Shown one piece after another: positions 33,760 through 51,433 of a DNA stretch of 51,433 nucleotides. The DNA is taken from the NCBI GenBank assembly GCA_029778075.1, contig JAKORA010000071.1, positions 1 to 51,433 of the forward strand. Direction: 5' to 3'. This DNA is from Bacillota bacterium. GTDB lineage: Bacteria; Bacillota; Dethiobacteria; DTU022; UBA8154. How positions within the stretch are numbered: the first letter of the stretch is position 1; each line of letters opens with the position of its first letter. The position numbers and the translations under genes are program-made. The notes below the pieces were generated by a model, which was not told the DNA's origin, ran no database searches, and saw only the letters and a list, made by a program, of their open reading frames with translations.

Positions 33760-34686
33760 TTAAATTATGGTAACAAAGGGGAAGCGTTCGGGAATTTCCG
33801 CCTGAAGAAAATCTATAAACCGTTTTACAGCAGTGCTAAGATGCGCTCCTTTTCGAAAAAGCAGATAAACATCCATGGTAGGCAGTTTTATATTATCGCC
33901 AAAGGAGAGCTCAACAATATATCCTCTTTCCAACGCTTTTTGCGCGGCGCTCTGTAGGAGCAGGCTAATCCCGCCGCCCTCTTCGACAATTTTTAAGACA
34001 ATTTCGGGTTCTTCCACTTGGGCGACGATCCGTAAATTGTGAAAACCGATGGCCGCAAAACCGTTAAATACAAAACGGTTATAGTCCGATCCCGACAGGC
34101 CGCTCAGTAACCCGTATTTATCCAGGTCTTCTTTTTGGACAAATTTTTGGGAAGCGACAGGGTGGTCCGGGCTACAAACCATTATTAAGGGCTCGCGATA
34201 AAAAGGTCGAAATTCAATTTGTGGGTTATCGGTAAATAACGATAATCCAAAATCTGCTTCCCCGTTCAGGACAAGGTTTTGAATTCGAGCGCTATTACCC
34301 GTCCGCAGGACAAAGCTAATCTCCGGATATTTTTTTCTAAAAGCCGCCAGCATGGAGGGAATGATAAATTTGCCAACGCTAAAGGCGAGCTTAATTTGTC
34401 CCAGTTTTCCGCTGCGCAACTCTGTGGCCGCTTTGTGGAGTTCTTCATTTTTGGCCAGAATTTCCAGGGCATAAGCATAGACAACCCGCCCGGCGTCCGT
34501 CAATTGGAGCTTACGTCCATAGGGCCTCTCGAATAATTCCACTTCCAAATCACGTTCAAGACGGTGTATATGCGCGCTGACGGCCGGTTGGGAAATATTT
34601 AGCTGCTGTGCTGCGGCGCGAAAAGTTCCGGCCTCTATGGCCACTTTTAAGACATACAATCCCATTTGTGACAGGTGTTTAAGCAT
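33760..34686 (-). CDS. LysR-family transcriptional regulator
   Basis: N-terminal wHTH (FRAAAQQLNISQPAVSAHIHRLERDLEVELFER) plus a substrate-binding domain. It is divergent from the rhodanese gene and convergent with dctM. Confidence 0.9.
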   Translation of the reverse strand: MLKHLSQMGLYVLKVAIEAGTFRAAAQQLNISQPAVSAHIHRLERDLEVELFERPYGRKLQLTDAGRVVYAYALEILAKNEELHKAATELRSGKLGQIKLAFSVGKFIIPSMLAAFRKKYPEISFVLRTGNSARIQNLVLNGEADFGLSLFTDNPQIEFRPFYREPLIMVCSPDHPVASQKFVQKEDLDKYGLLSGLSGSDYNRFVFNGFAAIGFHNLRIVAQVEEPEIVLKIVEEGGGISLLLQSAAQKALERGYIVELSFGDNIKLPTMDVYLLFRKGAHLSTAVKRFIDFLQAEIPERFPFVTII

Positions 34687-34816
34687 TTCCCTTAAATCTC
34701 CGCAAGTAACTTTAAGATCTTTAAGATTATTATAGTATAAACTACACCGGTATCATTATTATAACATAAAGTATCTCTAGCTAGCTATAGACTGTGTTTC
34801 ACCAGTTGTATTTAAT

Positions 34817-34847
34817 AATTGCGACATATATAAAGATTTGCGCAATT
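34817..34847. promoter_or_regulatory. Inverted repeat in the LysR/rhodanese divergent intergenic region (candidate operator)
   Basis: AATTGCG (34817-34823) and CGCAATT (34841-34847) are separated by 17 AT-rich nt. Confidence 0.3.
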
Positions 34848-34927
34848 CACCAAATTATTATATAATAGTTAAAAAAAAGAAAGGCGGTGAAGATATGTAA
34901 AACTTATTTTAAAGGAAGGTTAGCGGT

Positions 34928-36262: not shown

Positions 36263-36439
36263 AGCGGAGAGGAGCAGGGTAAAAAATAAACAGTGAAAGC
36301 TGGCTATACATGTGTCAAGATGGTAGAACCAGAGCGTTCTGCCATCTTTGTTAAGGGGTACATTTGTTCAAAAAAAACAAATTACGAGAAAATTTAAATG
36401 CCTTTGCCGTAAAAAATGTGGGAAAGAAGGGTGAACATT

Positions 36440-37822
36440 ATGTCGGATGCCAAGGCGTTGCAGCAAGAGAGAAAACAGTTGTTTGAAGATCTATACAGTG
36501 GCAAAATACCCAAAAGGGTGCCCATTATGGCTAATCTGCCCATTGAATTTTGCATACAGTACGCCGGGCTCCCCCTGGCTGAAACCCAGTGGACCCTGGA
36601 GGGTATGGAAGAGGTCCTGGAAAAAGCTTCGCAGATGACCAGCTCGGACTACTATCCCTTTGGTTCCATGAGATTTCCTGCTCATCTTCAGATCCTGGGT
36701 TCCCGGAGCTATATTATGGGATCGAACGGTTTCATACAACACCCTGAAGTAACCGGCATGGAAGTGGATGAATATGACGAATTTATCAAAAATCCTTACG
36801 ACTGCATGTTGGAAAAAATTCTGCCCAGACTTTATCCGGAACTTGACACCGACCCGGTAACCCGCTCTTTGGTTTTTGCTAAAGCGTTTAAAGCTTATTC
36901 CGATTATTTGGAAGCCTATGCCCGGTTGGATGCTAAAATAATCGAGAAATACGGTTTTTATACGGCGCCCAAAGGATCTACGAGTGTCGTAACGGCCCCA
37001 TTTGACTTCGTAGCAGATTTTTTGCGGGGATTCAAGGGGATATCCATGGATGTGCGGAGATGCCCGGAGAAAATTATGGCAGCCTGTGAAGCCGTGCTGC
37101 CGTTACAGATAAAAAAAGGACTGCCGGAAAAACCTTCCAGATTTGGCCAGACCTTTATCCCTCTCCATATGGGTTCATATTTAAGAACCAGCGATTTTGA
37201 AAAACTTTACTGGCCGACGTTTTCCAAAATGGTCCATGCCTTCGCCCAGGCCGGTCAACCGTGCCGCATATTCTGTGAGCATGACTGGATGCGCTACCTC
37301 GATTATCTGTACGACCTTCCGGAAAATACTAGATTATATTTTGAATTTGGCGATCCCAAACTTGTAAAAGAAAAGCTGGGTAAAAAACACATTATCTCCG
37401 GTTTTTATCCGCTTACTTACCTGAAAACAGCGACCAAGCAGCAGTGCATTGATAAGGCCAAAGAACTTCTGGATATCCTGGCTCCCGGCGGGAAATACAT
37501 CTTCGAGTTCGACAAAAGCCCTGTGTCGCTGGATAGTATCAACGTGGAAAATTACGCGACAGTGCTCCGTTATGTCGCTGAAAATGCCCGCTACCCCAAT
37601 GCCGGGGAACCCGCGGAGGCAGAAAACAGGCCGGCACAACCGGCTTCACCCCATGCTTCATCCGAGGGGGCGCTGCCTGAATTCAAATCCCGGTATTATA
37701 AGTCGTGGAAGGAATACAGGGAAGAGCATCCCGCCCTTGATCCCGTATTGGAGCCGATAATGGCGCCCAAACTGCAAAGCTATGAAGAACTTCTGTTCAA
37801 AATGATCTCCAGGCTGATGTAG
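36440..37822 (+). CDS. Uroporphyrinogen-decarboxylase (URO-D)/MtaA-like family protein with a C-terminal extension (tentative)
   Basis: 460 aa. The overall pattern (KIPKRVPIMANLPIEFCIQYAG..., FIPLHMGSYLR, IFCEHDW) recalls URO-D-like methyltransferase folds. The assignment is by eye only. Confidence 0.4.
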   Translation: MSDAKALQQERKQLFEDLYSGKIPKRVPIMANLPIEFCIQYAGLPLAETQWTLEGMEEVLEKASQMTSSDYYPFGSMRFPAHLQILGSRSYIMGSNGFIQHPEVTGMEVDEYDEFIKNPYDCMLEKILPRLYPELDTDPVTRSLVFAKAFKAYSDYLEAYARLDAKIIEKYGFYTAPKGSTSVVTAPFDFVADFLRGFKGISMDVRRCPEKIMAACEAVLPLQIKKGLPEKPSRFGQTFIPLHMGSYLRTSDFEKLYWPTFSKMVHAFAQAGQPCRIFCEHDWMRYLDYLYDLPENTRLYFEFGDPKLVKEKLGKKHIISGFYPLTYLKTATKQQCIDKAKELLDILAPGGKYIFEFDKSPVSLDSINVENYATVLRYVAENARYPNAGEPAEAENRPAQPASPHASSEGALPEFKSRYYKSWKEYREEHPALDPVLEPIMAPKLQSYEELLFKMISRLM

Positions 37823-38054
37823 CGGCAGCACAAACTGTGAGAACATCTCTTTAGCCGTCTGGCTCTCAGTTTCCAGCGCAAAAGAGTCCAGGCTTGCATG
37901 CGGACCCGGCACTGCTACCTGAAACATATCACAGTCCGTATACAGGTAGGGTGACGCCATCTTTTCAAAAGAGGAAAATTGTAACAGAACAGGAAATTAT
38001 GAAGGAATTCGGAATTATTTGGCGAAAAATATACAATAAGACCTAACAAAAGGG

Positions 38055-39014
38055 TTGTGCAATGTGTTTGAAAACTTCCGGCTGGCACGCTACCGGATAA
38101 CTATTACAGCAGGAAAAGATGGCTTATCGCTACCTCCCTACAAAGGATCCACCTTTCGCGGCGGGTTTGGGGGAGTGTTCAGGCGTATTGTCTGTTCAAT
38201 GAGGCAGGCTGAGTGTGGGGATTGTCTGCTGCGAGAACAGTGCCCCTATGCCTACATTTTCGAAACCTCCCCCCCGCCGGACACGCAGGCCTTGAGTAAA
38301 TACGAAAGCATCCCCCGCCCGTTTGTTATAGAACCCCCTCTGGAAACGAAAACAGAATACTTGCCCGGAGAAAGCCTGTTTTTCCATCTTATTCTTGTCG
38401 GACGCGCCATACAGTACCTCCCCTACTTTATTGTTGTTTTTCGGGAAATGGGTGAAGCGGGCCTCGGCAAGAAGCGGCGCTCTTTCAATCTCGAAGATGT
38501 TGCGGCTATAGGGCTGGATGAAAGCCAATCCATTTATTCTGCTCAAACAAATACGGTTCAAAACCTGGATTTGGCCTTTTTAGGCTCTCAGCTCATTAAA
38601 AAATTTCCTGCTGCAGCCCGCAGGGCGGAGGTTACCTTTGAAACACCGGTACGCTTAAAGGATGAGGGTAAAATTGTCAGGCGTCCGGATTTCCATGTTT
38701 TCTTCCGCCAGGCCATGCGCCGCCTCTCCTCACTATCCTATTTTCATCACGGAGAAACGCTGCAGGCCGATTATGCAGGGTTGTCAGAACGTGCCCGGAG
38801 TATTTCGCTGATAAAAAACGCTACCTCCTGGCATGATTGGGAGCGCTACTCCCGCCGCCAGGGGCAGCGCATGAACATGGGCGGATTGGTGGGCACGGTG
38901 GTCTATGAGGGAAAGCTCGACGAGTTTCTGCCCTGGCTGATCCTGGGAGAACAGGTCCATGTGGGAAAGAATACAGTTTTCGGCCTGGGTAAATACCGGA
39001 TGTCAGTTCGCTGA
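38055..39014 (+). CDS. cas6: CRISPR pre-crRNA endoribonuclease Cas6 (RAMP)
   Basis: LPPYKGSTFRGGFGGVF N-terminal RAMP motif, Cys cluster CSMRQAECGDCLLREQCPY, and a C-terminal glycine-rich loop HVGKNTVFGLGKY. The start may be GTG 38064. Confidence 0.8.
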   Translation: MCNVFENFRLARYRITITAGKDGLSLPPYKGSTFRGGFGGVFRRIVCSMRQAECGDCLLREQCPYAYIFETSPPPDTQALSKYESIPRPFVIEPPLETKTEYLPGESLFFHLILVGRAIQYLPYFIVVFREMGEAGLGKKRRSFNLEDVAAIGLDESQSIYSAQTNTVQNLDLAFLGSQLIKKFPAAARRAEVTFETPVRLKDEGKIVRRPDFHVFFRQAMRRLSSLSYFHHGETLQADYAGLSERARSISLIKNATSWHDWERYSRRQGQRMNMGGLVGTVVYEGKLDEFLPWLILGEQVHVGKNTVFGLGKYRMSVR

Positions 39015-39034
39015 CAGAAATTGTCGGACATTTT

Positions 39035-40051
39035 TTGCATATCATTGTTTTATTGTGTTATATTTTTTTTAACAAAAGTTTGGTGATCCTTTTGAACAAA
39101 ACGGAGCGTATCATCAAGGTGATTCTTGCTTTATCGCAAAATCCCGCCGCTTCTGCGACTGAGCTTGCCGGCCAACTACAGGTTTCAGAACGCTCTATAT
39201 ACCGCTACCTGAAAGATATCAAGCATCTTGGCTTTCCATTACACAATTTTAAAGACCCGGAAGCTGGTTTGCGTAGGCATTACCTGACGCCTCTAACCTT
39301 TACTGCCTCAGAAGCGTTGGCGATTATCGCTGCTGGACAGTCCTTGCTTTCTCAGGAGGGGCTTCCCATCTGTGAAGACCTGGAAACTGCTCTGCTTAAA
39401 GTAAAAGCGGCAATTTGCTCAAACGAAGAAAAGCGAGCTTTTTACCGCTTGGAACCTCGATTTACTTACCTGGGTGAAAAAATACGCGATTATACACCCT
39501 GGCAGGTACTTATTCAGCAGCTAATTGAATGTATCTACCACTGCCGCTCTATTACAGTTGTCTACGATTCTTTTTCCAGCGATGAAATAACAGAAAGGAA
39601 AATCGATCCATACGATCTTTACTGGAACAAGGGCAACCTTTATTTGGCAGCCTACTGCCATAAACATAATGACATACGCAGCTTCCGCATTGACCGCTTT
39701 AAATCCCTGAAAAATGTTGGAGAACGCTTCAACCGGGACCCCAAATTTGATTTGTCCGAATTCCTTGGTCCAAGCTGGCAGGTCTACCGGGGAAACGAAG
39801 AGGTGTGCAAAGTAAAAATACTAGTTTATCCTCCGGCGGCACGCCTTTTTCGCGAAACACGCTACCATGAAACACAGGAACTGGAGGAGTTGGAAGGCGG
39901 TAGGCTTTACTGCACCTTAACAGTATACGATTCTCCCGAATTTCGGAGCTGGCTCCTCGGCTGGGGAAGCCAGGTGGAAGTTTTGGAACCGGCGAAACTG
40001 CGTGATGGGATAAAGGAAGAGCTGGTGAAAAGCGTGCAGTTGTATAAGTAG
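39035..40051 (+). CDS. HTH-WYL-WCX transcriptional regulator (CRISPR-associated WYL protein)
   Basis: HTH (ATELAGQLQVSERSIYRYLKDI), a WYL domain (IDPYDLYWNKGNLYLAAYCHKHNDIRSFRIDRF) and a WCX-like tail (GWGSQVEVLEP). The true start is probably GTG 39083 or TTG 39092. Confidence 0.75.
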   Translation: MHIIVLLCYIFFNKSLVILLNKTERIIKVILALSQNPAASATELAGQLQVSERSIYRYLKDIKHLGFPLHNFKDPEAGLRRHYLTPLTFTASEALAIIAAGQSLLSQEGLPICEDLETALLKVKAAICSNEEKRAFYRLEPRFTYLGEKIRDYTPWQVLIQQLIECIYHCRSITVVYDSFSSDEITERKIDPYDLYWNKGNLYLAAYCHKHNDIRSFRIDRFKSLKNVGERFNRDPKFDLSEFLGPSWQVYRGNEEVCKVKILVYPPAARLFRETRYHETQELEELEGGRLYCTLTVYDSPEFRSWLLGWGSQVEVLEPAKLRDGIKEELVKSVQLYK

Positions 40052-40203
40052 GCAGAAATAATTATCCATTATTGGACATAACTTGTTAGGCGAAGAACTG
40101 TGGCAGCTTAATTTAAAAATGATTAATAGAAAAACCATCGTGCTTGAGCATATCATAGTAGCGTTGCGCGGCACGTGGAAGACTCTATTCAAGGAAACAG
40201 GGG

Positions 40204-42825
40204 GTGTTAGAGATGGTAAAAAGTGTCATTTTGCAACGAGCGATAGAGTGGATGCTCAAACGTAATTGGAAAAGGCTAGTGGCTAAGCGGAAATATTTTA
40301 ACCAAAGTTTATTTGAACATGTACTTGTGGAATTAGATGCGACTCTCCAGCTATTGCCATTGCTGAGGCTGCCCTGCCATTTAAACCTTACTCTAGAGGA
40401 AGAAGAAATAATTGTGACGGCAGTTATCGCCCATGACGTAGGCAAAGAAAGACCTGAATGGCAGGAGTACATATTGGGCCGAAGGCCTTTCCTTTCAGAC
40501 ATAGATCCTGAACTTACAAGGAAAGTAATACCAGAACTTTGTGCTGCCCTTGGTTTTTCTGATGTTGGTAGAAAAGCAATTGCAGTTATAGAAAATTGTG
40601 TTAATTTGCATATGAGCGGGGAGCGCACCGACGCCAATGTCGTATCGGCAGCTCTGCGCGGGACAGACAGGTGGTATACTCTGGCCAACTTGGTTTTTCA
40701 TATTGACAATATTTGTTCTGCTAGAGGTGTCTTTGAAGCAAAAATTGCTCTAGAAAGAAGCTTGTTAGGTAAGCACTTGAAAACAGCTTACCACCAAATA
40801 AACATCCGCGGTGTGTCTTCAACCGTCTTGCACCGGGCAGCCCTGGAAGCTTTCCAGGGAGCGGGCTGGATTCCCCTGCTCCATTTTAGTGACGCCACGC
40901 TTTACGTCGGGTCGGCTGCTGAACCAATAAAAGCCCCTTTTATCGACCAAATTGAAAATAAATTGGCCTTGATTTTAGATGAAATAGTGAGTTCTGAAGT
41001 AGTGCCCCTGGTAATAGGAAGCGAGATGCAGGACTTTTTGCCAAAGCCTGAACTTTTTGATTATCGCGAGCTCGAAGCCTATCTCTGGGAGGCGAGCAAA
41101 AGAGCCAACCCTTTGAATTTTAAAAAGAAAAAACCTGAATACAAAGCCGATGTTGTAAAAAAGTACCTGGATCTTTGTAACATTTCCTTTGACTCTTTTG
41201 ATTCTTCTAGCATTGATTTATACACCGAGCGCATTGGCATAGCCCGCCGGGAGATGGCTGTTTTGCGGTTTTTCAAGTACGCCATGAGCTCGGATTTAAT
41301 CGGAAAAGATGGCGTAAGTATTGCAAAGCAAGAATATGAAAATATTTTTGGCCAGGGAGCATGGGAAGAGCTTACGAGCATGTCCACATATATGCCGGCA
41401 CCGGATATGAAAAGGGTAGATCGTTTTTGGGCGTTGCCGGGGTGCCAATTTGGCATTAATGTCAGTACTATAGAAGAGCTTGCAAGTGAGGAGCGCGTAA
41501 AATTGCTAATTGAACTTTTATCCCAAATCGCTGTTAAAGTTTATTCAGCCATATCAAGTCCACCTACACGGGCTACCCTTGCACGTGAGATGGCGGCGGG
41601 ATTTATGCAGGATTTAATAAGTCCTGCTGACGATTTTAAGCCGCTGGAAATAGCCAAACATCAAATGGAATTTTATGCCATCTCTAAACCTTTTACCGGT
41701 AAGCAGACCAGGAAAGCACGCTATTTATGCCCCATATGTAATACCTCCTTTGAGACAGGAATTAAAGCAAGTGCAGACTTTATTGATAAGCCTGAGGCCC
41801 ACACTAACAGGGGTGTAGCCCACGGAGCCTTTGGTTATGTTACTATTTGTTACACCTGTTATTATGAGAGAATTTTGCGCCAGGTTCTTTTAGGCGAACG
41901 GGCAAAGGAGCTCATTGTTATTTTCCCGCGTATGAACATCGGGGCTGAAACCGGAGAACTATTGGTGGAGAAAGCACGTTCATTTTTCCAACGGGCTTAC
42001 GCTCTTATGGTTGCCGATGAAGGTGAACCAGACCTTCATTTGAGCATGGCGCTTACTCATTTTATCTTCGAACAAATTTTGAAACAGGACTTTTCCCACC
42101 TTGACCCGGCCCAGCTTGCCGAGCTGCTTACCTATCGTTCAAGCAAAGAGAACAGGAGAAGAAATCTGCAAAAATTGTCGAAAGCATTGCAAGAGGCTTA
42201 TGGGGAAGATTTAGAGGAGGCTAATATCGCTTGGGGGACAACCTTTTCTTTATGGGACGAAGCTGTTGAAGCAGTATATGCCAATAAGGTTAACGATGAT
42301 GAGGCACGTAGAATTCGTGCTGAAGTTTACCAATTGCATCCCCGAATGAAGCTTGTATGCCAAACACCGCATATGGCTTTGCTGCCGCTTAGTTACACTA
42401 TTAGGCTTAATGAAGATTCAGAAGCCAATGCTGCCTTACGTCGGACTTTTATAGCGATTTTTATGGGTCTGGGGCTAGATGCGTCGGTTGCCATTGTTTC
42501 TAGTAGCGATGAAATTGACTTCCAGGGAGGTGAAGGTGTTGCTTTCGTTCCGCCGGTGGCTTCTATTCGCCAGCTTATTGGCTCTAACTGGGTGCAGCTT
42601 GACGAAGCGGAACGCTGGCTGAAAAGCATTGGCATAGCAAGTATCTTAGCGGATAGCGGAAGCTATTCTAAAAGAGCAGGCTTGTTAGAGGTTTTGTTGG
42701 CTCCAACTCCCGGGCATGTTCTCCGCCGTATTGAACTAAAGAAGAATGAGGAAAAGAAGCCTTTGAGGTACCAGGATATTGTTTATTTGCGTATTTTGGC
42801 TGAAGTAACAACCCCATCTATGTAA
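40204..42825 (+). CDS. cas10d: Type I-D large subunit Cas10d with an N-terminal HD nuclease domain
   Basis: HD-domain motifs: H39 in the sequence FEHV, H77-D78 (VIAHDVGKE, nt 40432-40437), NLHMSG and VFHIDN. Cys4 finger CPIC...CYTC (nt 41728-41859). No GGDD cyclase motif was seen. It is followed by Cas7/Cas5 genes and an HD-less Cas3. ATG 40213 is an alternative start. Confidence 0.7.
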   Translation: MLEMVKSVILQRAIEWMLKRNWKRLVAKRKYFNQSLFEHVLVELDATLQLLPLLRLPCHLNLTLEEEEIIVTAVIAHDVGKERPEWQEYILGRRPFLSDIDPELTRKVIPELCAALGFSDVGRKAIAVIENCVNLHMSGERTDANVVSAALRGTDRWYTLANLVFHIDNICSARGVFEAKIALERSLLGKHLKTAYHQINIRGVSSTVLHRAALEAFQGAGWIPLLHFSDATLYVGSAAEPIKAPFIDQIENKLALILDEIVSSEVVPLVIGSEMQDFLPKPELFDYRELEAYLWEASKRANPLNFKKKKPEYKADVVKKYLDLCNISFDSFDSSSIDLYTERIGIARREMAVLRFFKYAMSSDLIGKDGVSIAKQEYENIFGQGAWEELTSMSTYMPAPDMKRVDRFWALPGCQFGINVSTIEELASEERVKLLIELLSQIAVKVYSAISSPPTRATLAREMAAGFMQDLISPADDFKPLEIAKHQMEFYAISKPFTGKQTRKARYLCPICNTSFETGIKASADFIDKPEAHTNRGVAHGAFGYVTICYTCYYERILRQVLLGERAKELIVIFPRMNIGAETGELLVEKARSFFQRAYALMVADEGEPDLHLSMALTHFIFEQILKQDFSHLDPAQLAELLTYRSSKENRRRNLQKLSKALQEAYGEDLEEANIAWGTTFSLWDEAVEAVYANKVNDDEARRIRAEVYQLHPRMKLVCQTPHMALLPLSYTIRLNEDSEANAALRRTFIAIFMGLGLDASVAIVSSSDEIDFQGGEGVAFVPPVASIRQLIGSNWVQLDEAERWLKSIGIASILADSGSYSKRAGLLEVLLAPTPGHVLRRIELKKNEEKKPLRYQDIVYLRILAEVTTPSM

Positions 42826-42887
42826 TATTTAATATTTTTCTATTTTAATATGTCTCCTGCAAAGAAGGTAAAGGAGGTTTATTCTTA

Positions 42888-43532
42888 GTGCGTACTCCGA
42901 TTTTTGTCCGAATCAAGCGATTTGATCTGGAGAGTGTTAGCTCAGATATTGAGTCTGTACGCCGTTGTTTTGATTCTTATTTAGATAGCTACCCGGTAAA
43001 ATCTTCTCGTTCCAAACACAGCCTTATGGGCCCTGTGGGTAAAATACTGCAGGAAGTTAAAAGTGGCAAGTGGGATGCCGATTCCCTTGCTGGATATGCT
43101 TTAAATATCCATCTTACAAATCCTAAAGCAAAAGGTTTTATTTCCCAGGAAGCTAGAAACTCTTTAACGGAAGGAATTAATAGGCTCTTAACCCTTTTAA
43201 AAAGTTCGCCAGTTACCGTACATGATAAAATACTGGATCGAATTGATTACGGACTATATTTTATGCGGCGAGCTAAAGTAATGGAGGCTTTTGAAAAGCT
43301 TCGTCAGGAATTTGCTGTTTTTTTGCGCCATAAATATGGAACATCAGAAAAACTGACTGAAGTCTGGGGTGAAAAATCGGCAGACTATGGTCCTGATTTT
43401 AGTAGAGTGCCATATCCGGGAAGGACACTATTTGAAAAAGCTAAAGGTCAGAAGAAAGCTGACATAAGCGAATTTGCACAGCAAGCCAAACTTAAAGGTT
43501 ACGAACTTATTGACGAGGAGGAGGAAATCTAA
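42888..43532 (+). CDS. Unassigned 214-aa protein inside the effector operon (candidate stand-alone small subunit, Cas11d-like)
   Basis: GTG 42888 lies 10 nt after AAGGAGG. The protein looks helical and charged, with an acidic tail LIDEEEEI. Its stop overlaps the csc2 ATG (TAATG), and the GAGGAGGAGG in its last codons serves as the csc2 Shine-Dalgarno. I recognise no family motif. Confidence 0.35.
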   Translation: MRTPIFVRIKRFDLESVSSDIESVRRCFDSYLDSYPVKSSRSKHSLMGPVGKILQEVKSGKWDADSLAGYALNIHLTNPKAKGFISQEARNSLTEGINRLLTLLKSSPVTVHDKILDRIDYGLYFMRRAKVMEAFEKLRQEFAVFLRHKYGTSEKLTEVWGEKSADYGPDFSRVPYPGRTLFEKAKGQKKADISEFAQQAKLKGYELIDEEEEI

Positions 43533-44479
43533 TGAGTGCCAAAGATGCTTTTGCGAGAATTCAAACCTATTTGCTTGAGAAACCGCGGCCGCTTATTGGT
43601 GCGGAAACGATTCAACTTGTTTTAATGCGAGAGATATTAGATTACACAATTCTCCGCACGGAAGAAACGCGGGAGTTAAAGACCCTCCACACTCCTTTCT
43701 CCATGACCAAGAACGACCAAACTGTACGCCGCGTCGCCTTTCTGGCTACGAAACAGAAAGCCGCTGAGTCTCGGGAATTAGAACATCTGCTTAGGACAGC
43801 GCGTAAAGTAGCAGGGTTGCCAGAACAGGAATGTTATTTAAAGGATAATTTGTGCATGAGTTGCCCTCGTTGTGGTCTTTATGGGGCAACGAGTACTCTT
43901 GCCGGGCAGCAAGAGCGGGCGAATATCAAGCACCGTATTGAATATTCTACAGCTTTTTCGCTTCTCTCTTTTGAAGACGTGGCTACTGCTGCTACCTTTA
44001 ATGCTATTAATGACCGCAACCAGATAACTGGACAAGCTTTGGGCCAGCGTTTTGCTGTGCAACCGGCTACATTATTTCCGTCAATAGTTACTTTAAAGAG
44101 TGTTACTAAACTAGAATTAATCATGGTCGTTAAAACCCTTTTATCATGCAAGAGCTACGGGGCAGAAAGCCGTATTGGAGGTGATGTGCGGAACAGCATC
44201 TGGGGGATTGTTGCTGGTTGGGAAGAAGTGATTACATCTTTAGAGCTTACTTTAGAATTGGCTGATAAATTGGATAACCTGAATTCAAATATAATTAAAG
44301 AGATCCTTGAGGAAAAGTACAAGCTAATGACTGGTAACCCGCAGCATGTGACTGTGCTTGAGCCGGAAGAGGTCGAGGGGCTGATCCAAGCGTGCGCGAA
44401 TATAGATCTGGATAAAGCGTTTTTGGAAAAAGCTTATCAAGATGTTGCAGATTACCGGAATGAACAACTAGCACGCTAA
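43532..44479 (+). CDS. csc2: Type I-D Cas7 backbone subunit (Csc2/Cas7d)
   Basis: 315 aa in the position after the large subunit. RAMP-like pattern with a Cys cluster CYLKDNLCMSCPRCGLYG. The call relies mainly on operon context. Confidence 0.65.
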   Translation: MSAKDAFARIQTYLLEKPRPLIGAETIQLVLMREILDYTILRTEETRELKTLHTPFSMTKNDQTVRRVAFLATKQKAAESRELEHLLRTARKVAGLPEQECYLKDNLCMSCPRCGLYGATSTLAGQQERANIKHRIEYSTAFSLLSFEDVATAATFNAINDRNQITGQALGQRFAVQPATLFPSIVTLKSVTKLELIMVVKTLLSCKSYGAESRIGGDVRNSIWGIVAGWEEVITSLELTLELADKLDNLNSNIIKEILEEKYKLMTGNPQHVTVLEPEEVEGLIQACANIDLDKAFLEKAYQDVADYRNEQLAR

Positions 44480-44504
44480 AAATTTGGGATATAAGGGGAT
44501 TATA

Positions 44505-45233
44505 ATGAGCAGCGCTATTTCTTTAAAGGAAAAAGGTATTCGGGTATTTAACTGCCGCCTCTATAATCATGACTATTTATGGTTTTCCTCGTATGAGATT
44601 AGCAAGATTTCGTCAACAATTCCAGTACTCCATAATTATGCTCTTACCTATTCTTTTGGTGATTATTCTTATGGCGTTTTTAAAGGTTCTGTCCCTCGTT
44701 ACAAAGAAGACCTGGCTCGTATACCTCTTTATGCTACTCCTGCTCTGGCAAATTATTGGAGTCGAACTCGCATTACTTATAATGCTGTTAACAGCCACTC
44801 TTTACGCACGGATGATGCGCCTCGTGGAATCAATTCACCTGACCTGGGCTGGCGAAATTATCTCGACCCGGTTTATCCAGGTGGGGGGCATAATGCCCAG
44901 CAAACAGGTTTCATCTGTTACCTGTTTACTTTTGACGGCAGAATTCCAAAAGGAGTAACGCGTTTGGGTAAAAAAGGTACAGCTATGCGAGTATGTTGGC
45001 AGGAAATAGAGAATCCCGTAGCAGTATTTCAGAAAGAACCAATACAGCCAACCCACCCTATAAACCCTCTTGATATTTCTGGCGAGATTGTTTTTTATGA
45101 ACCGGTGAGCATTCCACCGCATATGTTGTTCAAAACTGCCGAGATTAAAAATGACTGGTTTATTTTTGCAGGACCGCATCGCATCCATATTCCTAATCAA
45201 GTAATAAATAGAGGTTGTAAAAAGGATGGATAG
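44505..45233 (+). CDS. csc1: Type I-D Cas5 subunit (Csc1/Cas5d)
   Basis: 242 aa from ATG 44505 (6 nt after AAGGGG). N-terminal segment YLWFSSYEISKISSTIPVLHNYALTYSFG. It lies between Cas7 and Cas3, and its stop overlaps the cas3 ATG. Confidence 0.65.
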   Translation: MSSAISLKEKGIRVFNCRLYNHDYLWFSSYEISKISSTIPVLHNYALTYSFGDYSYGVFKGSVPRYKEDLARIPLYATPALANYWSRTRITYNAVNSHSLRTDDAPRGINSPDLGWRNYLDPVYPGGGHNAQQTGFICYLFTFDGRIPKGVTRLGKKGTAMRVCWQEIENPVAVFQKEPIQPTHPINPLDISGEIVFYEPVSIPPHMLFKTAEIKNDWFIFAGPHRIHIPNQVINRGCKKDG

Positions 45234-47268
45234 CCTAAAAGTACGGCCTTTAGTGCTGCCTTTAATAAAGCATCCCTCTACAAAACAAATGCTTTATCCA
45301 CACCAGGCGGCAATGCTTGAAAACTGGAATAAATATAATACATTTACGCTTGTCACAAAAACGGGAACGGGCAAGACTATGGGGGCAGTATTGCCTGTAC
45401 TTTTAAACAGGCAACGGGCAATTTGTGTGTATCCTACTAATGAGCTTATTCGTGACCAGGTCAAAAACATCGCTAGTATTGCTGAAAGAGAAGGGCTTAA
45501 GGCTTGTATTTTGACCCTTGAGACTACCGTCGAAGAGTATTCAAAAGCAGACGTTATTTTGACGCATATTGATGCTTTTACCCTGGAAGCTTGGTGTAAG
45601 CAAAAACATTGGCGTGAAAAATGGAGAGCATTAAAAGAACTGTTAGAAGCCGATAAACCTAAGATTATTTTCACTAACCCAGACATTCTTTTTTTGATCT
45701 TTGCTTTGCGCTATCATGCTGAGCCATTTGCTGCATTGTCTGGCTATAACGTTTTAATTGTCGATGAATTTCATCTATATACAGGGGTTGAATTAGCCCA
45801 TGCTTTATTCATGCTCCATCTAGGCTACAGCTTGGGCTTTTTTGAGAAAATCGTTCTTTTATCAGCCACACCTTCACCTGAAGTTTACGAATATTTGCAG
45901 GTGTTGCTCAACGATCCCTTTTGTGTAGATTCAACAACAGGCAAAACGGGTGGTTCTGATTTTCTCGGCGAAGAGCGCGTTGCTGTCCACGAAGTAGAAT
46001 TAATTCCTTTCTTGGCTGGGCAGGATATAGTAGAAACAGCTGTGGTTATAGTCAAAAAACTGTCAGAAGAAATTATTAAAGTCTGGAAGCAAAATACAGG
46101 AGTTGGCTACATCCCTGCTGTAATTGTCCTCAATTCTGTGGTTGACGCTATCCGCTTAGAAGACCGGCTGGCAGAGGAAGGTTTTAAGCGCAAGGAAATG
46201 GCCATCATAAGGGGCCTTTCAGCACGAGAAGTGCGCAACACATCAGGGAAAAAAATCGCCATAGGGACTTCTGCTATTGAGGTGGGGATAGATTTTCAAT
46301 GCGATTACCTTATTTTTGAAGCGAGTGAGGCTGCTTCTTTCATGCAGCGCTTTGGGCGGGTGGGGCGGCATAAACCAGGTGTTGCCTATGTACTTTGTCC
46401 ACCAAACGTTCTCTACGGAATAGAAACTTTGAAAGAAAAAGGGATTGAATTAGATCGCGCTGTTTTAGAGGAAAAGGCATATAACTGGTTTCCTTCTTTT
46501 GAAACAAGAGCATGGTTTGTAAGGACACTTATGGGTTTGCTTTCGGCCTTTACCCTTGGTGAAAACTTAATAAAGTGCGTTCGCGAAGATTTCAAAGCTA
46601 CTCCAGCACTGATAACAGAAGTGGAATCACAAATGGAGAATCAATATACTTCATATGGTCAAAAAATTGGTTGCAAGGATAGTATACTTAACAGCGCGCT
46701 CTATAAACTGCGGAAAGCACGTCAAGGCAACGCTAGGCTTGAATGGTTAAGGGTATATCGAGACCTCAACACTTTTCGTACTTCCCTTCCCAGCGAGTGG
46801 ATACTTGATTTTGCTGAATTAGAACGCCGAGGTGGTGATTGGGAAAAAGCTAAGTATACTGCAGATTTGGCGACTTTGCTTCGGCGTGCTGAGGGTTTGC
46901 GTTTTAACTCCAAAATTCGTCACCCGACTGGTAATAAAGGAATGCTCACTGTCAAAGGTTATGGTCGATATAAAAAAGTATGGATTATACCAGAATTTAG
47001 AGATGAACAAATTGGATTTTTACACTGTACTAAAGACTTTCCTAATATGCTTTTTATTCAAGAGGGCCATAAAACTTCAGTTTCTCATATAATGTCGTTG
47101 CGCAATCATGTTTTTGTAGTTGTACCAAAAAGTATATTGCATCAGCTTGACTGGCGTTTACCTGTGTTTGACTGCGGGAAGCATCTTATCGGCTTTGATG
47201 GAGTCGCCCTAATCTTAATAGAACTTTATAACTTAACATCTCAAACAAGTTATTTAAGTAGCATTTAA
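45226..47268 (+). CDS. cas3: Cas3' SF2 helicase without an HD domain
   Basis: Walker A KTGTGKT (45358-45378), DEFH box (45763-45774), LSATPS, and the motif VI-like FMQRFGRVGRH. No HD motifs are present in the 680 aa. Confidence 0.85.
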   Translation: MDSLKVRPLVLPLIKHPSTKQMLYPHQAAMLENWNKYNTFTLVTKTGTGKTMGAVLPVLLNRQRAICVYPTNELIRDQVKNIASIAEREGLKACILTLETTVEEYSKADVILTHIDAFTLEAWCKQKHWREKWRALKELLEADKPKIIFTNPDILFLIFALRYHAEPFAALSGYNVLIVDEFHLYTGVELAHALFMLHLGYSLGFFEKIVLLSATPSPEVYEYLQVLLNDPFCVDSTTGKTGGSDFLGEERVAVHEVELIPFLAGQDIVETAVVIVKKLSEEIIKVWKQNTGVGYIPAVIVLNSVVDAIRLEDRLAEEGFKRKEMAIIRGLSAREVRNTSGKKIAIGTSAIEVGIDFQCDYLIFEASEAASFMQRFGRVGRHKPGVAYVLCPPNVLYGIETLKEKGIELDRAVLEEKAYNWFPSFETRAWFVRTLMGLLSAFTLGENLIKCVREDFKATPALITEVESQMENQYTSYGQKIGCKDSILNSALYKLRKARQGNARLEWLRVYRDLNTFRTSLPSEWILDFAELERRGGDWEKAKYTADLATLLRRAEGLRFNSKIRHPTGNKGMLTVKGYGRYKKVWIIPEFRDEQIGFLHCTKDFPNMLFIQEGHKTSVSHIMSLRNHVFVVVPKSILHQLDWRLPVFDCGKHLIGFDGVALILIELYNLTSQTSYLSSI

Positions 47269-48029
47269 TAGCAAATTGTTTTACAAACAGTCTGGAAATT
47301 ATCCTAAGCACACAACCATGCAATAAAGTGACCGGTATTAGAAATATCTGAAATGATTATAGATATAATATCTCTTTAGCCCTAAATAATTTAAAGAAAC
47401 GCATATGTTATGTTAAAACTTTATTAAGAATAGAGTGCGTTGGGAAATAAAAAGTATACTGATGAGTTCAACATGGAAGAAATTAATAGTGAAACGGGTA
47501 ATATCTATAAAAAATCAAAAGGGGGTTGATTACAACATCAAAAGGACCTACACCGAAAGAAAACAAGGCTGTGCAAATTTTCGGTAAGAGTGTTGTGCTT
47601 TTGTCGGCCACGTCTTATTGCTACTGAAATAGAAAAGGTAGGTGTTGCCCTATAGTAGGAGAGTAAATTGGAGGCATTAGTTCAATAACGTAGACATTTT
47701 AAATTCTACCAGTGGCGAAGACTGCTTTTGCTTTTGTAACTTATTCTGCTGGAAAGAAATATATTCTTCGGAATATAAACCTGAATATCTGTTCTGCCAA
47801 CAAAATGTTTTTTCCATGTAATGATTACTCTGCTATTATACATCTTGGCTTCCTTTAAAAATATTGAATCTCCTACAAAAAACATACTGGTTTGGGGCGA
47901 TATTTGAGGAGCCAGGTTGTTAACGGAATGATAAAAATATTTAAGAAACATTTAATATTTTTAAAATATTGCCGATAAAATGTAAAAACCCCTCATTTTT
48001 GAGGAAGATTCTTTCCAGGAGAGTTTTTT

Positions 48030-49037
48030 ATGAACCTCGTCATTAACAACTATGGCTCCTTTATCGGCAAAAAGAGTGAACGGTTGGTCGTTAAGGAAAA
48101 CGGCAAGGTGGTCCATGAAGTGCCTTTTTTTGACCTTTCCCAGGTTACGGTAACAACGGCCGGTGCTTCGCTATCCAGCGATGCTATAAAAATGTGCATG
48201 GAATACGGGATACAGATTAATTTTCTTTCCAGCTCCGGTCAGCCTTATGCCAAAATCAGTTCACCGCAGTTGACGGCTACGGTGCAAACCAGGCGGGAAC
48301 AATTGATGGCATACCTGGACCAAAGAGGTGTTGCGCTGGCAAAAGCTTTTGTTTACGGAAAAATTAAAAACCAGGTTAATACTCTAAAATATTTTTCCAA
48401 GCACCGCAAGGAAGCCCAAAGGGAAACTTACGAAAAAATTATGGCGGCCGTAAAAAAGATGGAAAATATCTGCAAAGAGCTGGACAGTCTTAACGGAGAG
48501 AAAATTGATGAGTTAAGAGGACAGTTTCTTTCTATCGAGGGAAGGGCTTCCGCTGTATACTGGGATCTTGTAGCGCTAATCCTTGAGGGAAAGGTGGATT
48601 TCCCGGGAAGGGAGCATCGTGGAGCGGAAGATCCCTTTAATTCCTTGCTTAACTATGGGTACGGCATCCTTTACTCTCAGGTGTGGAGTGCAGTTATCCT
48701 GGCCGGTCTTGAGCCGTTTGCCGGATTTATGCATGTAGACCGGCCGGGTAAACCATCTCTTGTCCTTGATCTGATCGAGGAGTTTCGCCAGCCAGTCGTG
48801 GACAGGACGGTTATTGCTATTTTCAGCAAGGGCGCTAAAATACAGCTGGAGGAAGGTAAGCTCTCCGCAGAGACTCGCAAAGATTTTGCGGAAAGGATCC
48901 TGGAGAGGCTGGAGGCAACTGACAATTACGAAGGGAAAAAATTTAGGCTCTCAACTATCATCCAACGGCAGGCTAGAAGCATTGCCTCCTTTGTCCGCGG
49001 AGAAGGAAAGTACCGCCCTTTTGTGGGGGGATGGTAG
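48030..49037 (+). CDS. cas1: CRISPR integrase Cas1
   Basis: 335 aa with FLSIEGRASAVYW, FNSLLNYGYGILYS and GFMHVDRPGKPSLVLDLIEEFR (conserved E/H/D-E residues). Confidence 0.9.
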   Translation: MNLVINNYGSFIGKKSERLVVKENGKVVHEVPFFDLSQVTVTTAGASLSSDAIKMCMEYGIQINFLSSSGQPYAKISSPQLTATVQTRREQLMAYLDQRGVALAKAFVYGKIKNQVNTLKYFSKHRKEAQRETYEKIMAAVKKMENICKELDSLNGEKIDELRGQFLSIEGRASAVYWDLVALILEGKVDFPGREHRGAEDPFNSLLNYGYGILYSQVWSAVILAGLEPFAGFMHVDRPGKPSLVLDLIEEFRQPVVDRTVIAIFSKGAKIQLEEGKLSAETRKDFAERILERLEATDNYEGKKFRLSTIIQRQARSIASFVRGEGKYRPFVGGW

Positions 49038-49294
49038 TGCAGACACTGGTTATTTATGATATTCCAGATGATAAGATTAGAAACAAAATTAGTGAGGCCT
49101 GCAAGGATTATGGTCTTACCCGCATCCAGTACAGCGCTTTCCTGGGCGACATTAACCACAACAGGCGTGATGAACTTCGTCAGCGACTGCGGCGCACCCT
49201 TGGGAAAAAAGAGGGGAATATCCAGATCTATCCCCTGTGCGATAAAGATATCAAGTTAAAGTGTGAAATTGTTAACACTGGAGAAAAAAAATGA
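49031..49294 (+). CDS. cas2: Cas2
   Basis: 87 aa. LVIYDIPDDKIRNKISEACKDYGLTRIQYSAF ferredoxin-like pattern. It overlaps the cas1 stop and the cas4 start. Confidence 0.85.
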   Translation: MVVQTLVIYDIPDDKIRNKISEACKDYGLTRIQYSAFLGDINHNRRDELRQRLRRTLGKKEGNIQIYPLCDKDIKLKCEIVNTGEKK

Positions 49295-49869
49295 TCCCGT
49301 TGCGTGTTTCGGATTTAAAACAATATATTTACTGCCCGCGCATTCTTTATTTTTACTATGTTTTGCCGGTACCCCGCAGGATAACGCGGAAAATGGAATA
49401 CGGTAAATTGGAGCATGTCGAAATACAGCAACTGGAGAAAAGACGAGGGTTGAAGCCCTATGGCGTGCTTGATGGTGAGAGGTCCTTTCATGTTTGGCTT
49501 GAATCTTCACGCTTGGGTTTACAAGGTGTTCTTGATATGATGATTACTTCTACGACCGGTGAGATTTATCCGGTAGAGTTCAAACACAGTATCAGCAAAA
49601 AAGGTTTGCACCAAAAATACCAGCTGGCTGCTTATGCCATGCTGCTGGAGGATATGTTCCGGAAGCCTGTACGGTATGGATTTCTTTACCTGATTCCTGT
49701 TAAGACCATTATCCCGCTCGAAATTACTTGTAGCATGCGTGAACATATCAAAAAAGTCCTCAGCGCTATTAGAAATCTTATTTCAGGTGAGAGAATTCCG
49801 GGTTATGTTCGTTCAAAACACCGCTGCTGTGACTGTGAGTTTCATAATTACTGTGCAGACCTGAGGTGA
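49291..49869 (+). CDS. cas4: Cas4 (RecB-like exonuclease with a 4-Cys cluster)
   Basis: YIYCPRILYF N-terminal Cys, the LDMM...VEFKHS nuclease motif (D...ExK), QLAAYAML, and the C-terminal CCDCEFHNYC. Confidence 0.85.
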   Translation: MIPLRVSDLKQYIYCPRILYFYYVLPVPRRITRKMEYGKLEHVEIQQLEKRRGLKPYGVLDGERSFHVWLESSRLGLQGVLDMMITSTTGEIYPVEFKHSISKKGLHQKYQLAAYAMLLEDMFRKPVRYGFLYLIPVKTIIPLEITCSMREHIKKVLSAIRNLISGERIPGYVRSKHRCCDCEFHNYCADLR

Positions 49870-49873
49870 AGTT

Positions 49874-50785
49874 ATGTATTTTTTAAATGAAGACGAAAGA
49901 AAAAAGCTGCTTAAAGGTTTTCTTCCCAAGTCCCGTGAACAAGCTGTGGCGGAGGAGTTGCGCGGCTGGAACTGGCACCAACCACCTTTAGAGCCTGTTT
50001 ATGAGGTTAGCCTGCCTTTATATCAGGTGGCCGGTAAGTACTGTTCCAGCGGCAGGGATGTCTATTTAAACAGGGTGGAGAAACGAAAAAGTGAAGCCAA
50101 CGATGCCATGCAGCTTGGTTCATTGTTCCACGAATTTATTGTTTATATATTAGTCCGTACAAAAAAGTTGATTTATCAATATGAGTTAAATACAGAATTG
50201 GTCTTCCAGGAATTGAAAAAAGTGCTGCCCGAGTTTTTAGAACGTAAGGCGTTTTTTCAGGAGAAAATTCCCGGTTTAAAGGATAAAATCGAACAACTCT
50301 ACAATTATGAATATTACCGGATTACATCGCGTATTCAGGAGATCCTTTCCAGACAGCCTTACATTGGGGAAGATTCTCTGGTTGCGCAGGTTGTTCCCCT
50401 TGTGCTGGAACAAAAGTTGGACGGATCCCTTCTTGGATTAAGCTCAAATTTAAGCTCAGACGCCTTTGTTTTTTCTGAACCGATGATTATAGATTTGAAA
50501 TTTGGGGCCCCTCAGAATTTTCATCGTTTAACCACAACCGGTTATGCCCTGGTAATGGAGTCTATTTATGAGTACCCTGTTAATATCGGGTGCATTGTTT
50601 ACGGGCAATTTAAAAATGGACGACTTTATATCCAGAAAGATTTTCATATCATCAACGATGAACTTCGTCAGTGGTTTATTGAAGAAAGAGATGAAAAAAT
50701 GAGGATAGTCTACGACGAGATAGATCCGGGGATAGCAGATAACTGCTACGAAACCTGCCCTTTTTATACTTTTTGCCATCGTTAA
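49874..50785 (+). CDS. Second Cas4-like nuclease (Csa1/Cas4'-like)
   Basis: 303 aa. MIIDLKFG (DxK), TTGYALVME, one N-proximal Cys (KYCSSG) and the C-terminal CYETCPFYTFC. It directly follows cas4. Confidence 0.55.
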   Translation: MYFLNEDERKKLLKGFLPKSREQAVAEELRGWNWHQPPLEPVYEVSLPLYQVAGKYCSSGRDVYLNRVEKRKSEANDAMQLGSLFHEFIVYILVRTKKLIYQYELNTELVFQELKKVLPEFLERKAFFQEKIPGLKDKIEQLYNYEYYRITSRIQEILSRQPYIGEDSLVAQVVPLVLEQKLDGSLLGLSSNLSSDAFVFSEPMIIDLKFGAPQNFHRLTTTGYALVMESIYEYPVNIGCIVYGQFKNGRLYIQKDFHIINDELRQWFIEERDEKMRIVYDEIDPGIADNCYETCPFYTFCHR

Positions 50786-50959
50786 ATTTATGATATTATG
50801 GTTATAAAGCACAAATACAAGAGGGGGGATTAAAATTTTCGCAGATATCCTATCTTTTCGTGCAAAAAAATTATCTTCGAGAATTTATAAAAATGCTGTC
50901 AAAAGTTATAATGGCAGAACCCCCATTCTGTGCAGAGTTAGTCTAAGACGTTGAAGTCG
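50786..50959 (+). promoter_or_regulatory. CRISPR leader with a candidate promoter
   Basis: AT-rich 174 bp between the last cas gene and repeat 1. TTTATA (50884-50889), a 17-nt spacer, then TATAAT (50907-50912), about 48 nt upstream of repeat 1. Confidence 0.5.
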
Positions 50960-51433
50960 GTATCATCACTAATCCCGTAAAATAGGGGACTGAAAGAGTA
51001 AGCGTTTACCGGATGTTGGTCCACGATGACGCGTATCATCACTAATCCCGTAAAATAGGGGACTGAAAGAACTTTCAGAGCATGGCTGGCTGCGGGAATG
51101 CCAGCGGTATCATCACTAATCCCGTAAAATAGGGGACTGAAAGATCGGGGCGCAAATATGAATGGGCCATCGAGCCGGATTGTATCATCACTAATCCCGT
51201 AAAATAGGGGACTGAAAGAATAACCCACCGGACTGTTCCAGCATGGACGGAAAAGTATCATCACTAATCCCGTAAAATAGGGGACTGAAAGGAAACTGCA
51301 CGCCGCCATTCCCGGAAGATGAAGCAAGTATCATCACTAATCCCGTAAAATAGGGGACTGAAAGAAATAATTCTTTACACCATTGTCTACACCATGACTA
51401 GTATCATCACTAATCCCGTCAAATAGGGGACTG
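50960..51433 (+). CRISPR. CRISPR array with 37-nt repeat GTATCATCACTAATCCCGTAAAATAGGGGACTGAAAG; 7 repeats visible (the last is cut by the window end) and 6 spacers of 36-38 nt
   Basis: Repeats start at 50960, 51033, 51107, 51182, 51255, 51328 and 51401. The first six are identical, and the seventh has A>C at 51420. Spacers are unique: 50997-51032, 51070-51106, 51144-51181, 51219-51254, 51292-51327 and 51365-51400. Confidence 0.97.

Follow-up and report, generated by a model that had tools for sequence, protein, structure and literature searches.

A type I-D CRISPR-Cas locus with a predicted stand-alone cas11d gene and an apparently mosaic history

Closest described systems and subtype of the locus

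The type I-D system of Synechocystis sp. PCC 6803 (PDB codes 7SBA and 7SBB; 10.1101/2020.04.18.045682; PMC9123187) possesses an HD-bearing Cas10d with a dead palm, Csc2, Csc1, an HD-less Cas3′, and Cas6. All of these are shared by the CRISPR-Cas locus described here, which lies at positions 38055–51433 of a 51,433-nucleotide stretch from a Bacillota bacterium (GenBank assembly GCA_029778075.1, contig JAKORA010000071.1). This whole stretch, hereafter the window, is a complete contig of a metagenome-assembled genome (MAG; 409 contigs, 87% complete, 7.3% contamination). In Synechocystis, the small subunit Cas11d is made from an internal start in cas10d, whereas the window carries a separate 214-amino acid gene that we assign to Cas11d. 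Internal translation of this kind is described as “widely conserved” across I-D groups (PMC10212523; 10.1101/2020.04.18.045682).

The archaeal I-D system of Sulfolobus islandicus LAL14/1 (PDB codes 6THH and 6YES; PMC7689449, PMC7544194) shows “distinct gene rearrangements” and lacks cas2 (PMC10212523), and I-D groups are reported to vary in where they place cas3′, cas6, and the regulatory gene (2023 review, PMC10212523). A split cas10d/cas11d state has been published for a single archaeal case, Haloarcula sp. Atlit-47R, where it is treated as an exception (PMC10212523, Supplementary Figure 1) and to which we liken our locus by its description. Two PADLOC-DB models, PDLC01192 (“CAS-I-D; effector_LS”) and PDLC01194 (“CAS-I-D; effector_SS”), match the window proteins end to end (1106 and 261 bits), so that a subfamily with a free-standing small subunit is already catalogued as I-D. 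These models are profile entries, and we found no paper on the branch, its breadth, or its biochemistry.

We typed all open reading frames (ORFs) of the locus by profile searches against PADLOC, NCBIfam (TIGR models with their curated cutoffs), and Pfam, together with fold searches against the PDB. An earlier note, written by a model from the sequence alone, had read the region as a complete type I-D-like locus with all genes on the plus strand. The ORF list and the profile names reproduce its gene order and coordinates throughout, in an unbroken plus-strand run, and give every gene a name within subtype I-D. The genuine and complete type I-D nature of the locus is fully supported by the hidden Markov models and the fold, on which the subtype assignment rests. 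Taking all of the evidence below together, we consider it highly probable that the locus is an intact and probably active I-D system of a non-cyanobacterial Cas10d subfamily, in which cas11d forms a gene of its own between cas10d and cas7d, and that it is a true mosaic in which the effector cassette was exchanged and a type III block deleted. Activity appears likely, given that no ORF is disrupted and that the catalytic motifs have been conserved.

The large subunit Cas10d (40204–42825, 873 amino acids) matches PDLC01192 with residues 8–868 on profile positions 4–846 of 847. It contains an N-terminal Cas3″-type HD nuclease and a Cys4 finger. His-77 and Asp-78 are encoded by CATGAC at 40432–40437, and the finger motifs CPIC and CYTC start at 41728 and 41848, precisely where the earlier note had placed the HD pair and the finger (41728–41859). 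The note had also seen no GGDD motif, and indeed nothing of the form G[GS]D[DE] occurs anywhere in the 873 residues, in line with the inactivated cyclase palm expected for I-D. The HD residues His-39, His-77, Asp-78, His-136, and Asp-168 are invariant across 18 Cas10d homologues. The HD region itself matches Cas3-HD models weakly, and more clearly so in a fused homologue discussed below.

Cas10d is poorly covered by common family models. The NCBIfam Csc3 equivalog TIGR03174 scores 24.3 bits, under its cutoff of 60, and the Pfam scan of the large subunit gave no match; its named database homologues are therefore mostly “hypothetical protein.” A profile built from the 18 homologues found a single match among PDB sequences, the Synechocystis Cas10d (7SBA_I, E 1.3e-4). 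The AlphaFold2 model (predicted local distance difference test score (pLDDT) 84.8, predicted template modeling (TM) score (pTM) 0.80) has Cas10d chains as its four best PDB fold matches, namely 7SBA_I (E 2e-15, TM 0.55), 7SBB_I, 6THH_C, and 6YES_A. The Synechocystis protein is thus the best fold match, although the structural alignment shows only ∼13% identity; matches three and four are from the archaeal S. islandicus, at ∼9% identity. The earlier note had allowed that the 873-residue protein might fall into a Cas8 family. We rejected a Cas8 identity, as no Cas8 model in PADLOC, NCBIfam, or Pfam matches and no Cas8 structure is among the 50 best fold matches listed; sequence and fold matches point to Cas10d only.

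The remaining effector genes are covered by I-D-specific models above their curated cutoffs. The backbone subunit Cas7d/Csc2 (43532–44479, 315 amino acids) matches TIGR03157 (112.5 bits versus 38) and Pfam PF18320 Csc2 (2e-42), and Cas5d/Csc1 (44484–45233, 249 amino acids) matches TIGR03159 (61.9 bits versus 41.4) and the PADLOC Cas5d model (1.8e-19), while Pfam gives no match for it. Cas3′ (45226–47268, 680 amino acids) is recognized by the I-D Cas3′ model TIGR03158 (153.4 bits versus 69.1). As the earlier note had it, this is a superfamily 2 helicase without an HD domain: GTGKT is found at residue 47 and DEFH at residue 180, the profile searches gave no HD-domain match, and Pfam shows helicase domains only (DEAD and Cas3-like_C_2). 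With motif I already at residue 47, there is no space for an N-terminal HD domain.

Upstream of the cassette lie cas6 (38055–39014, 319 amino acids), encoding the CRISPR RNA (crRNA) endoribonuclease (PADLOC Cas6 PDLC01477, 6.4e-114; Pfam PF10040, 4e-22), and a gene for an HTH-WYL-WCX transcription regulator (39035–40051, 338 amino acids; Pfam WYL 1.6e-18, WCX 7e-18, HTH_11 7e-8; PADLOC CRISPR-associated WYL 6e-40). Downstream, the adaptation block consists of cas1 (48030–49037, 335 amino acids; TIGR00287, 290 bits), cas2 (49031–49294, 87 amino acids; TIGR01573, 61.8 bits; Pfam 1.6e-20), cas4 (49291–49869, 192 amino acids; TIGR00372, 115.9 bits versus a cutoff of 65), and csa1 (49874–50785, 303 amino acids). 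The latter is a Cas4′ paralogue that matches Pfam PF06023 (1e-83, 281.5 bits versus a gathering score of 27, residues 10–302 on profile positions 8–290 of 292) and PADLOC Cas4a/Csa1 (TIGR01896-derived, 5e-66), so that the pair of cas4 and a Csa1-like gene proposed in the earlier note is present. Cas1 scores best with the PADLOC subtype model Cas1b (332 bits; Cas1d, 199 bits) and fails cas1_CYANO (TIGR04093, 178.1 bits versus a cutoff of 385). The cas4-csa1 pair is of the type I-A style and is joined here to an I-D effector; Cas8a, Csa5, and other I-A effector genes are absent from the locus, and the profile scans of the locus genes revealed neither a CARF gene nor any other ancillary effector gene.

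A separate gene for the small subunit

Directly between cas10d and cas7d, at 42888–43532, lies the 214-amino acid gene that the earlier note had to leave as unknown. It matches PDLC01194 over its full length (2.3e-78, 261 bits), and on profile and model evidence we assign it to a stand-alone Cas11d small subunit. The AlphaFold2 model is all-helical (pLDDT 86), as expected for the Cas11 family, whose members are small helical proteins from the effector operon with homology to the large subunit's C-terminal module. Among PDB structures, the model comes closest to 6YES_A and 6YES_B, the Cas10d chains of S. islandicus, with probabilities of 0.98–0.99 but E values of 0.05–0.1, the matched region of these chains not being reported. 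A sequence search of Cas11d against the PDB returned chance-level matches only, and alignment of the Cas11d profile with the Cas10d profile (hhalign) indicated no significant internal duplication (probability 1.3%).

The distribution of the gene was followed in two ways. A scan of one genome per species, annotated with the window proteins, yielded 33 related loci, which represent eight phyla or more (Bacillota, Chloroflexota, Poribacteria, Thermodesulfobacteriota, Fischerbacteria, Armatimonadota, Thermodesulfovibrionales, and Binatia). A cas11d homologue follows cas10d in all 28 of those whose contig continues, often with overlapping stop and start codons. In addition, a Cas11d profile search of 1.84 billion representative proteins found 138 clusters, 105 of them at E ≤ 1e-10. 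The locus differs from canonical I-D, in which Cas11d comes from internal translation and no separate cas11 gene exists, in that a distinct and conserved 214-amino acid cas11d follows cas10d. Compared with the single Haloarcula exception, the split state is clearly much more common: we see it in 28 loci of bacterial assemblies, which cover at least eight phyla, as well as in 138 representative protein clusters.

The same family also includes fused forms. The Cas11d profile matches the C terminus of a 1119-amino acid protein of the representative library (P0157) at 907–1115, and this protein is a natural Cas10d–Cas11d fusion, with Cas10d at 13–898 and Cas11d at 911–1113. It likewise matches the C terminus of an 889-amino acid protein (P0218), whose Cas11d-like C terminus is shorter. 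Stand-alone versions of about 145–150 amino acids, which lack the C-terminal third, exist as well. Members of the Cas11d family share a conserved acidic C-terminal tail rich in Glu and Asp (e.g. DEEEEI), encoded in the window at 43500–43529, which could possibly act as a DNA mimic or contact Cas3′ or Cas10d.

The gene order around cas11d is just as conserved. According to the earlier note, the textbook order starts with cas3′, has cas6 after cas5d and a cas4-cas1-cas2 block, and lacks csa1, and the window differs in all of these respects. Its layout had therefore been called non-canonical, which holds against the cyanobacterial textbook order but not as a novelty. The string cas10d-cas11d-cas7d-cas5d-cas3′ is present in 24 of the 33 related loci; seven others are cut by contig ends, and two are rearranged (L007 and L012). 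A locus in a Bacillota MAG (L010) has the identical 11-gene order cas6-WYL-cas10d-cas11d-cas7d-cas5d-cas3′-gap-cas1-cas2-cas4-csa1-array, whereas L009 differs from it by lacking the WYL gene and L017 by lacking csa1. Overall, cas6 lies upstream in 13 and a WYL gene upstream of cas10d in 19 of the 33 loci, and csa1 follows cas4 also in L006, L009, L010, L031, and the congeneric genome G004 introduced below. The layout is thus the norm for this I-D branch. The note itself had named a common and already catalogued layout as a reason to drop its claim, and with 24 of 33 loci, an identical relative, and dedicated PADLOC models this is largely the case. Likewise, the extra gene it had counted in the effector operon is real, yet as Cas11d it is a regular member of the branch rather than an oddity.

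The locus is therefore nothing unusual within an I-D branch that profiles catalogue but that has been little described. Because this Cas10d escapes the NCBI and Pfam models, and the Cas5d escapes Pfam, such loci are easily mistyped or judged incomplete, whereas PADLOC-style profiles type them cleanly. With its separate cas11d, this branch reaches far beyond the one exception mentioned in the 2023 review (PMC10212523), and it is a naturally occurring setting in which to ask why cas11d is fused and internally translated in other I-D systems. We also entertain, tentatively and with more doubt than confidence, a wider scenario in which the window belongs to a broad and essentially undescribed I-D lineage, with members in Bacillota, Chloroflexota, Poribacteria, Desulfobacterota, Armatimonadota, Fischerbacteria, and further groups, that has a free-standing, translationally coupled cas11d and rare fused relatives such as P0157, contradicting conserved internal translation. 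Such a lineage could be a pre-fusion intermediate between type III, which has a separate cas11, and canonical I-D. Given the conservation of the ACUGAAAG handle and of Cas6, its five-gene cassettes may in addition be interchangeable plug-in units, exchanged in place and served by a single array that type III modules use as well.

Probable exchange of the effector cassette and probable loss of a type III block

Among 40 relatives searched, only one, a congeneric genome (G004), has a homologue. Its contig C18 carries the locus at the chromosomal site that it occupies in the window, on the downstream side of a tRNA cluster. Both loci follow the order cas6-WYL-cas10d-cas11d-cas7d-cas5d-cas3′ … cas1-cas2-cas4-csa1-array, although in G004 this is a compound locus in which the cas4-csa1 pair is joined also to III-C and III-A modules. 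Nucleotide identity between the two genomes is 84–91% in the tRNA-side flank, 78% over cas6-WYL (79% and 80% at the amino acid level), and 75% from cas1 through the array start (87% for the Cas1 protein), and the repeats are near-identical. Across the ∼7-kb effector block, by contrast, no nucleotide similarity was detected, and the proteins share 35% (Cas10d), 39% (Cas11d), 60% (Cas7d), 47% (Cas5d), and 37% (Cas3′) of their residues. These comparisons support a true mosaic at a fixed chromosomal site, in which cas6-WYL and cas1-cas2-cas4-csa1-array are common to both genomes, whereas the five-gene cassette (∼40.05–47.5 kb) was apparently exchanged for a distant one of the same subfamily.

The same differences could have arisen if no replacement had taken place and the effector genes, inherited vertically with the rest, had diverged in place at a much higher rate than the adaptation genes, cas6, and WYL, for instance under anti-CRISPR pressure. 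Effector genes evolve fast, the gene order is identical in the two genomes, Cas7d is still 60% identical, and neither flanking repeats nor mobile-element genes accompany the cassette. We nevertheless consider divergence in place quite unlikely, because the window cassette has closer relatives elsewhere. It is 60–65% identical to cassettes of other Bacillota and Chloroflexota, and its best matches in these groups reach 65% for Cas10d and 81% for Cas7d, compared with 35% and 60% to G004. In the trees, the two cassettes fall into different deep clades, the G004 Cas10d and Cas7d being nearest to a Poribacteria/Chloroflexota clade, without strong support. Vertical descent predicts that window and G004 are sisters; this a priori grouping is rejected by approximately unbiased (AU) tests, at p = 1.4e-5 for Cas10d and p = 1.4e-4 for Cas7d. 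Neither the complete loss of nucleotide similarity over 7 kb between flanks at 75–80%, nor the drop in GC content inside the cassette (0.426, compared with 0.485 in cas6-WYL and 0.50 in the backbone), is readily explained by divergence in place.

Trees within the related loci point in the same direction as the comparison with G004. The window Cas10d groups with L001–L004 (100% support in the Shimodaira–Hasegawa-like approximate likelihood ratio test), whereas its Cas1 groups with L009, L025, and L031, apart from the Cas1 of L004. AU tests on these groupings reject the congruent alternatives (p 5e-8 and 3e-6); they are supportive only, since the groups were chosen after the trees had been seen. 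The mosaic suspected in the earlier note is thus borne out, both by the separate effector and adaptation phylogenies it had called for, which are discordant, and by the comparison with a neighboring genome, which shows the same site, conserved flanks, and divergent effector proteins, with a block replacement from cas10d to cas3′ in between.

A second alternative to exchange in the genome is a chimeric assembly, in which the flanks and the cas10d–cas3′ block stem from two different strains or species of the metagenome. The contamination and the 409 contigs of the MAG would fit such an error, as would an independent metagenome contig from the European Nucleotide Archive (L050, 7555 bp) that matches the window at 39948–47504 with 97.5% identity and breaks exactly at both borders of the cassette, which is what a branching assembly graph would produce at a junction that varies between strains. 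In this contig, however, cas10d is joined to the final 104 bp of the WYL gene, and the sequence runs 236 bp past the cas3′ stop. Furthermore, gene order and flank genes recur in G004, L010, and L009, so that one would expect a cassette of this family there, and the operon spacing and overlaps look natural. Even with mixed strains, both variants would sit at the same site, and we hold a chimera to be very unlikely. As a side observation, cas3′ is split into two ORFs in L050 (5277–7312, coverage 2.8), possibly by a frameshift or a low-coverage error.

The region between cas3′ and cas1 appears to record a further event. In G004, this interval contains intact genes for MNT (nucleotidyltransferase; 121 amino acids, Pfam NTP_transf_2) and HEPN (132 amino acids, Pfam HEPN) proteins, followed by a III-C module (cmr1, cmr6, cas10c, cmr4, cmr5, and cmr3) and a III-A module (csm1/cas10, csm2, csm3, csm4, and a 452-amino acid gene); the array of at least 40 repeats follows cas1-cas2-cas4-csa1. 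The corresponding gap in the window is 761 bp long (GC content 0.32) and contains a relic of the MNT antitoxin-type gene at 47517–47691 on the plus strand. Here, 47517–47618 and 47629–47691 match the 5′ and 3′ ends of the G004 gene (∼80% nucleotide identity), whereas ∼211 bp of its interior are gone; in a tblastn search, the MNT N terminus was found with 15 of 24 residues identical (E 2e-6). HEPN and both type III modules (∼15 kb) are absent, and 338 bp of AT-rich DNA (47692–48029) stand in their place, with no nucleotide match to G004, no Rfam match, and no ORF with a family match. The small ORFs of the gap, including one of 81 amino acids on the minus strand (47706–47951), have no family matches. 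The adaptation operon likely has its promoter within 47692–48029, although the consensus scan was not above chance.

The gap is best read as a deletion scar, left by an earlier compound I-D/III locus with a single cas6, adaptation module, and array in common. A loss in the window, rather than a gain in G004, is suggested by the broken MNT gene. No homologue of the G004 III-C Cas10 was found in the window's own assembly (87% complete), so that the type III module was not simply moved to another assembled contig. Type III modules recur next to this kind of cassette: in L001, whose cassette is the closest effector relative of that of the window, a complete type III-B module (cmr1–6) with a CARF-PD-(D/E)xK protein and Csx15 lies directly upstream (1984–9800). 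Together with G004, this indicates that I-D/III adjacency is recurrent in the branch. Within the flanks fetched for L001, neither cas6 nor WYL nor cas1 was found.

That the locus is instead a type III-like system or a new class 1 subtype, with a Cas10 and a separate Cas11 that merely recruited a helicase, is most unlikely: the separate cas11 gene, the resemblance of Csc2 to type III Cas7, the failure of NCBIfam Csc3 and Pfam on the large subunit, and the frequent type III neighbors would agree with it, but the large subunit has its best sequence and fold matches in Cas10d only and lacks GGDD, its HD region matches Cas3-HD weakly and that of P0157 more clearly, Csc2, Csc1, and the I-D Cas3′ exceed curated cutoffs, no CARF or ancillary effector gene is among the scanned locus genes, the repeat is of the I-D type, and fused Cas10d–Cas11d relatives occur in the same family.

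Several points weigh against our reading of an intact I-D mosaic. G004 is the single informative congener for judging which lineage holds the replacement cassette, and only the MNT relic argues for loss of the type III block in the window as opposed to its gain in G004. The source genome is a MAG of the completeness, contamination, and fragmentation given above, and L050 overlaps the conserved left flank by about 46–100 bp only and stops 13 bp short of the MNT relic. At the two cassette borders, no meaningful direct or inverted k-mers (≥10 nucleotides) are shared, and there is no sign of site-specific recombination. The predicted small-subunit role of Cas11d is read from the name of the profile, the position of the gene, its helical fold, the naturally fused protein, and a weak fold match (E 0.05). 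Finally, a comparison of the array spacers with 50,697 phage records found no protospacer from which a protospacer adjacent motif (PAM) could be read.

With no repeats on either side of the cassette, the exchange most likely proceeded by homologous recombination in the conserved flanks. In-situ exchange and loss of effector modules are a general trend (2025 CRISPR classification), of which the pair of window and G004 provides a clean case at the level of coordinates, with effector exchange and type III loss at a shared adaptation module and array.

Array, inferred mechanism, and neighboring sequences

The CRISPR array (50960–51433, plus strand) comprises six full copies of a 37-nucleotide I-D-type repeat, GTATCATCACTAATCCCGTAAAATAGGGGACTGAAAG, and a seventh cut by the contig end, with spacers of 36–38 nucleotides. 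The repeat ends in ACTGAAAG. Its 37-nucleotide architecture is common to G004 and the arrays of the related loci, in which repeats end in ACTGAAAG or ACTGAAAC; of the 15 loci in which an array was detected, 14 show this end. The Synechocystis repeat has the same architecture and ends in ACTGAAAC, and a WYL-type regulator (sll7009) is tied to that system as well. No further copies of the window repeat were found in its own assembly. The array is preceded by an AT-rich leader (50786–50959, plus strand), whose best σ70-like match (TTTATA-17-TATAAT at 50884–50912, 48 nucleotides before repeat 1) is a candidate promoter. Counts from the promoter and terminator consensus scans were not above shuffled expectation, and an Rfam scan of 37800–51433 gave no match at E ≤ 0.1.

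By homology with the characterized Synechocystis and Sulfolobus systems (PMC9123187, PMC7544194, PMC10212523), the locus would function as follows. Cas6 would cut the 37-nucleotide repeats and leave an 8-nucleotide ACUGAAAG 5′ handle on the crRNA, corresponding to the ACUGAAA(G/C) handle that is predicted for Cas6 and 37-nucleotide repeats of subtype I-D. A Cascade composed of Cas5d, several Cas7d, Cas10d, and several free Cas11d subunits, the latter as its minor filament, would assemble on the crRNA. Once a PAM-dependent R-loop has formed, the HD-less helicase Cas3′ would be recruited, and the DNA would be degraded by the N-terminal Cas3″-type HD domain of Cas10d. The definition of subtype I-D that we applied includes crRNA-guided, Cas3′-dependent degradation of double-stranded DNA with a GTN-type PAM. 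Transcription may be controlled by the WYL protein, and spacers would be acquired by Cas1–Cas2 together with Cas4 and Csa1. The findings leave the picture of the type I-D mechanism unchanged.

The surroundings of the locus and its relatives offer some further observations. Between the tRNA cluster and cas6, the window contains a 10.6-kb block (27474–38054) of metabolic and transport genes according to the earlier note, the last two ORFs of which were scanned here. This block has no counterpart in G004, where only ∼1 kb separates the tRNA-side flank from cas6, and the site downstream of the tRNAs looks like an insertion hotspot. Among the related loci, the whole I-D locus of an uncultured Chloroflexia MAG (L033, 10000–21200) consists of many short ORFs and is either decayed or part of a frameshift-rich assembly, and cas1 of L010 is split (17764–18814), possibly by a frameshift or a low-coverage error. 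Additional cas6 homologues (35–38% identical) are present in G004 (contig C67, 2411–3352) and in a further congeneric genome, G003 (contig C97, 5051–5995), and the latter also contains Cas1 fragments at contig ends that are 87–88% identical to the window Cas1. The genome of the window itself encodes a second Cas1 on contig C248 (1727–2569, Pfam 316 bits), which makes a second CRISPR-Cas locus in this genome probable.

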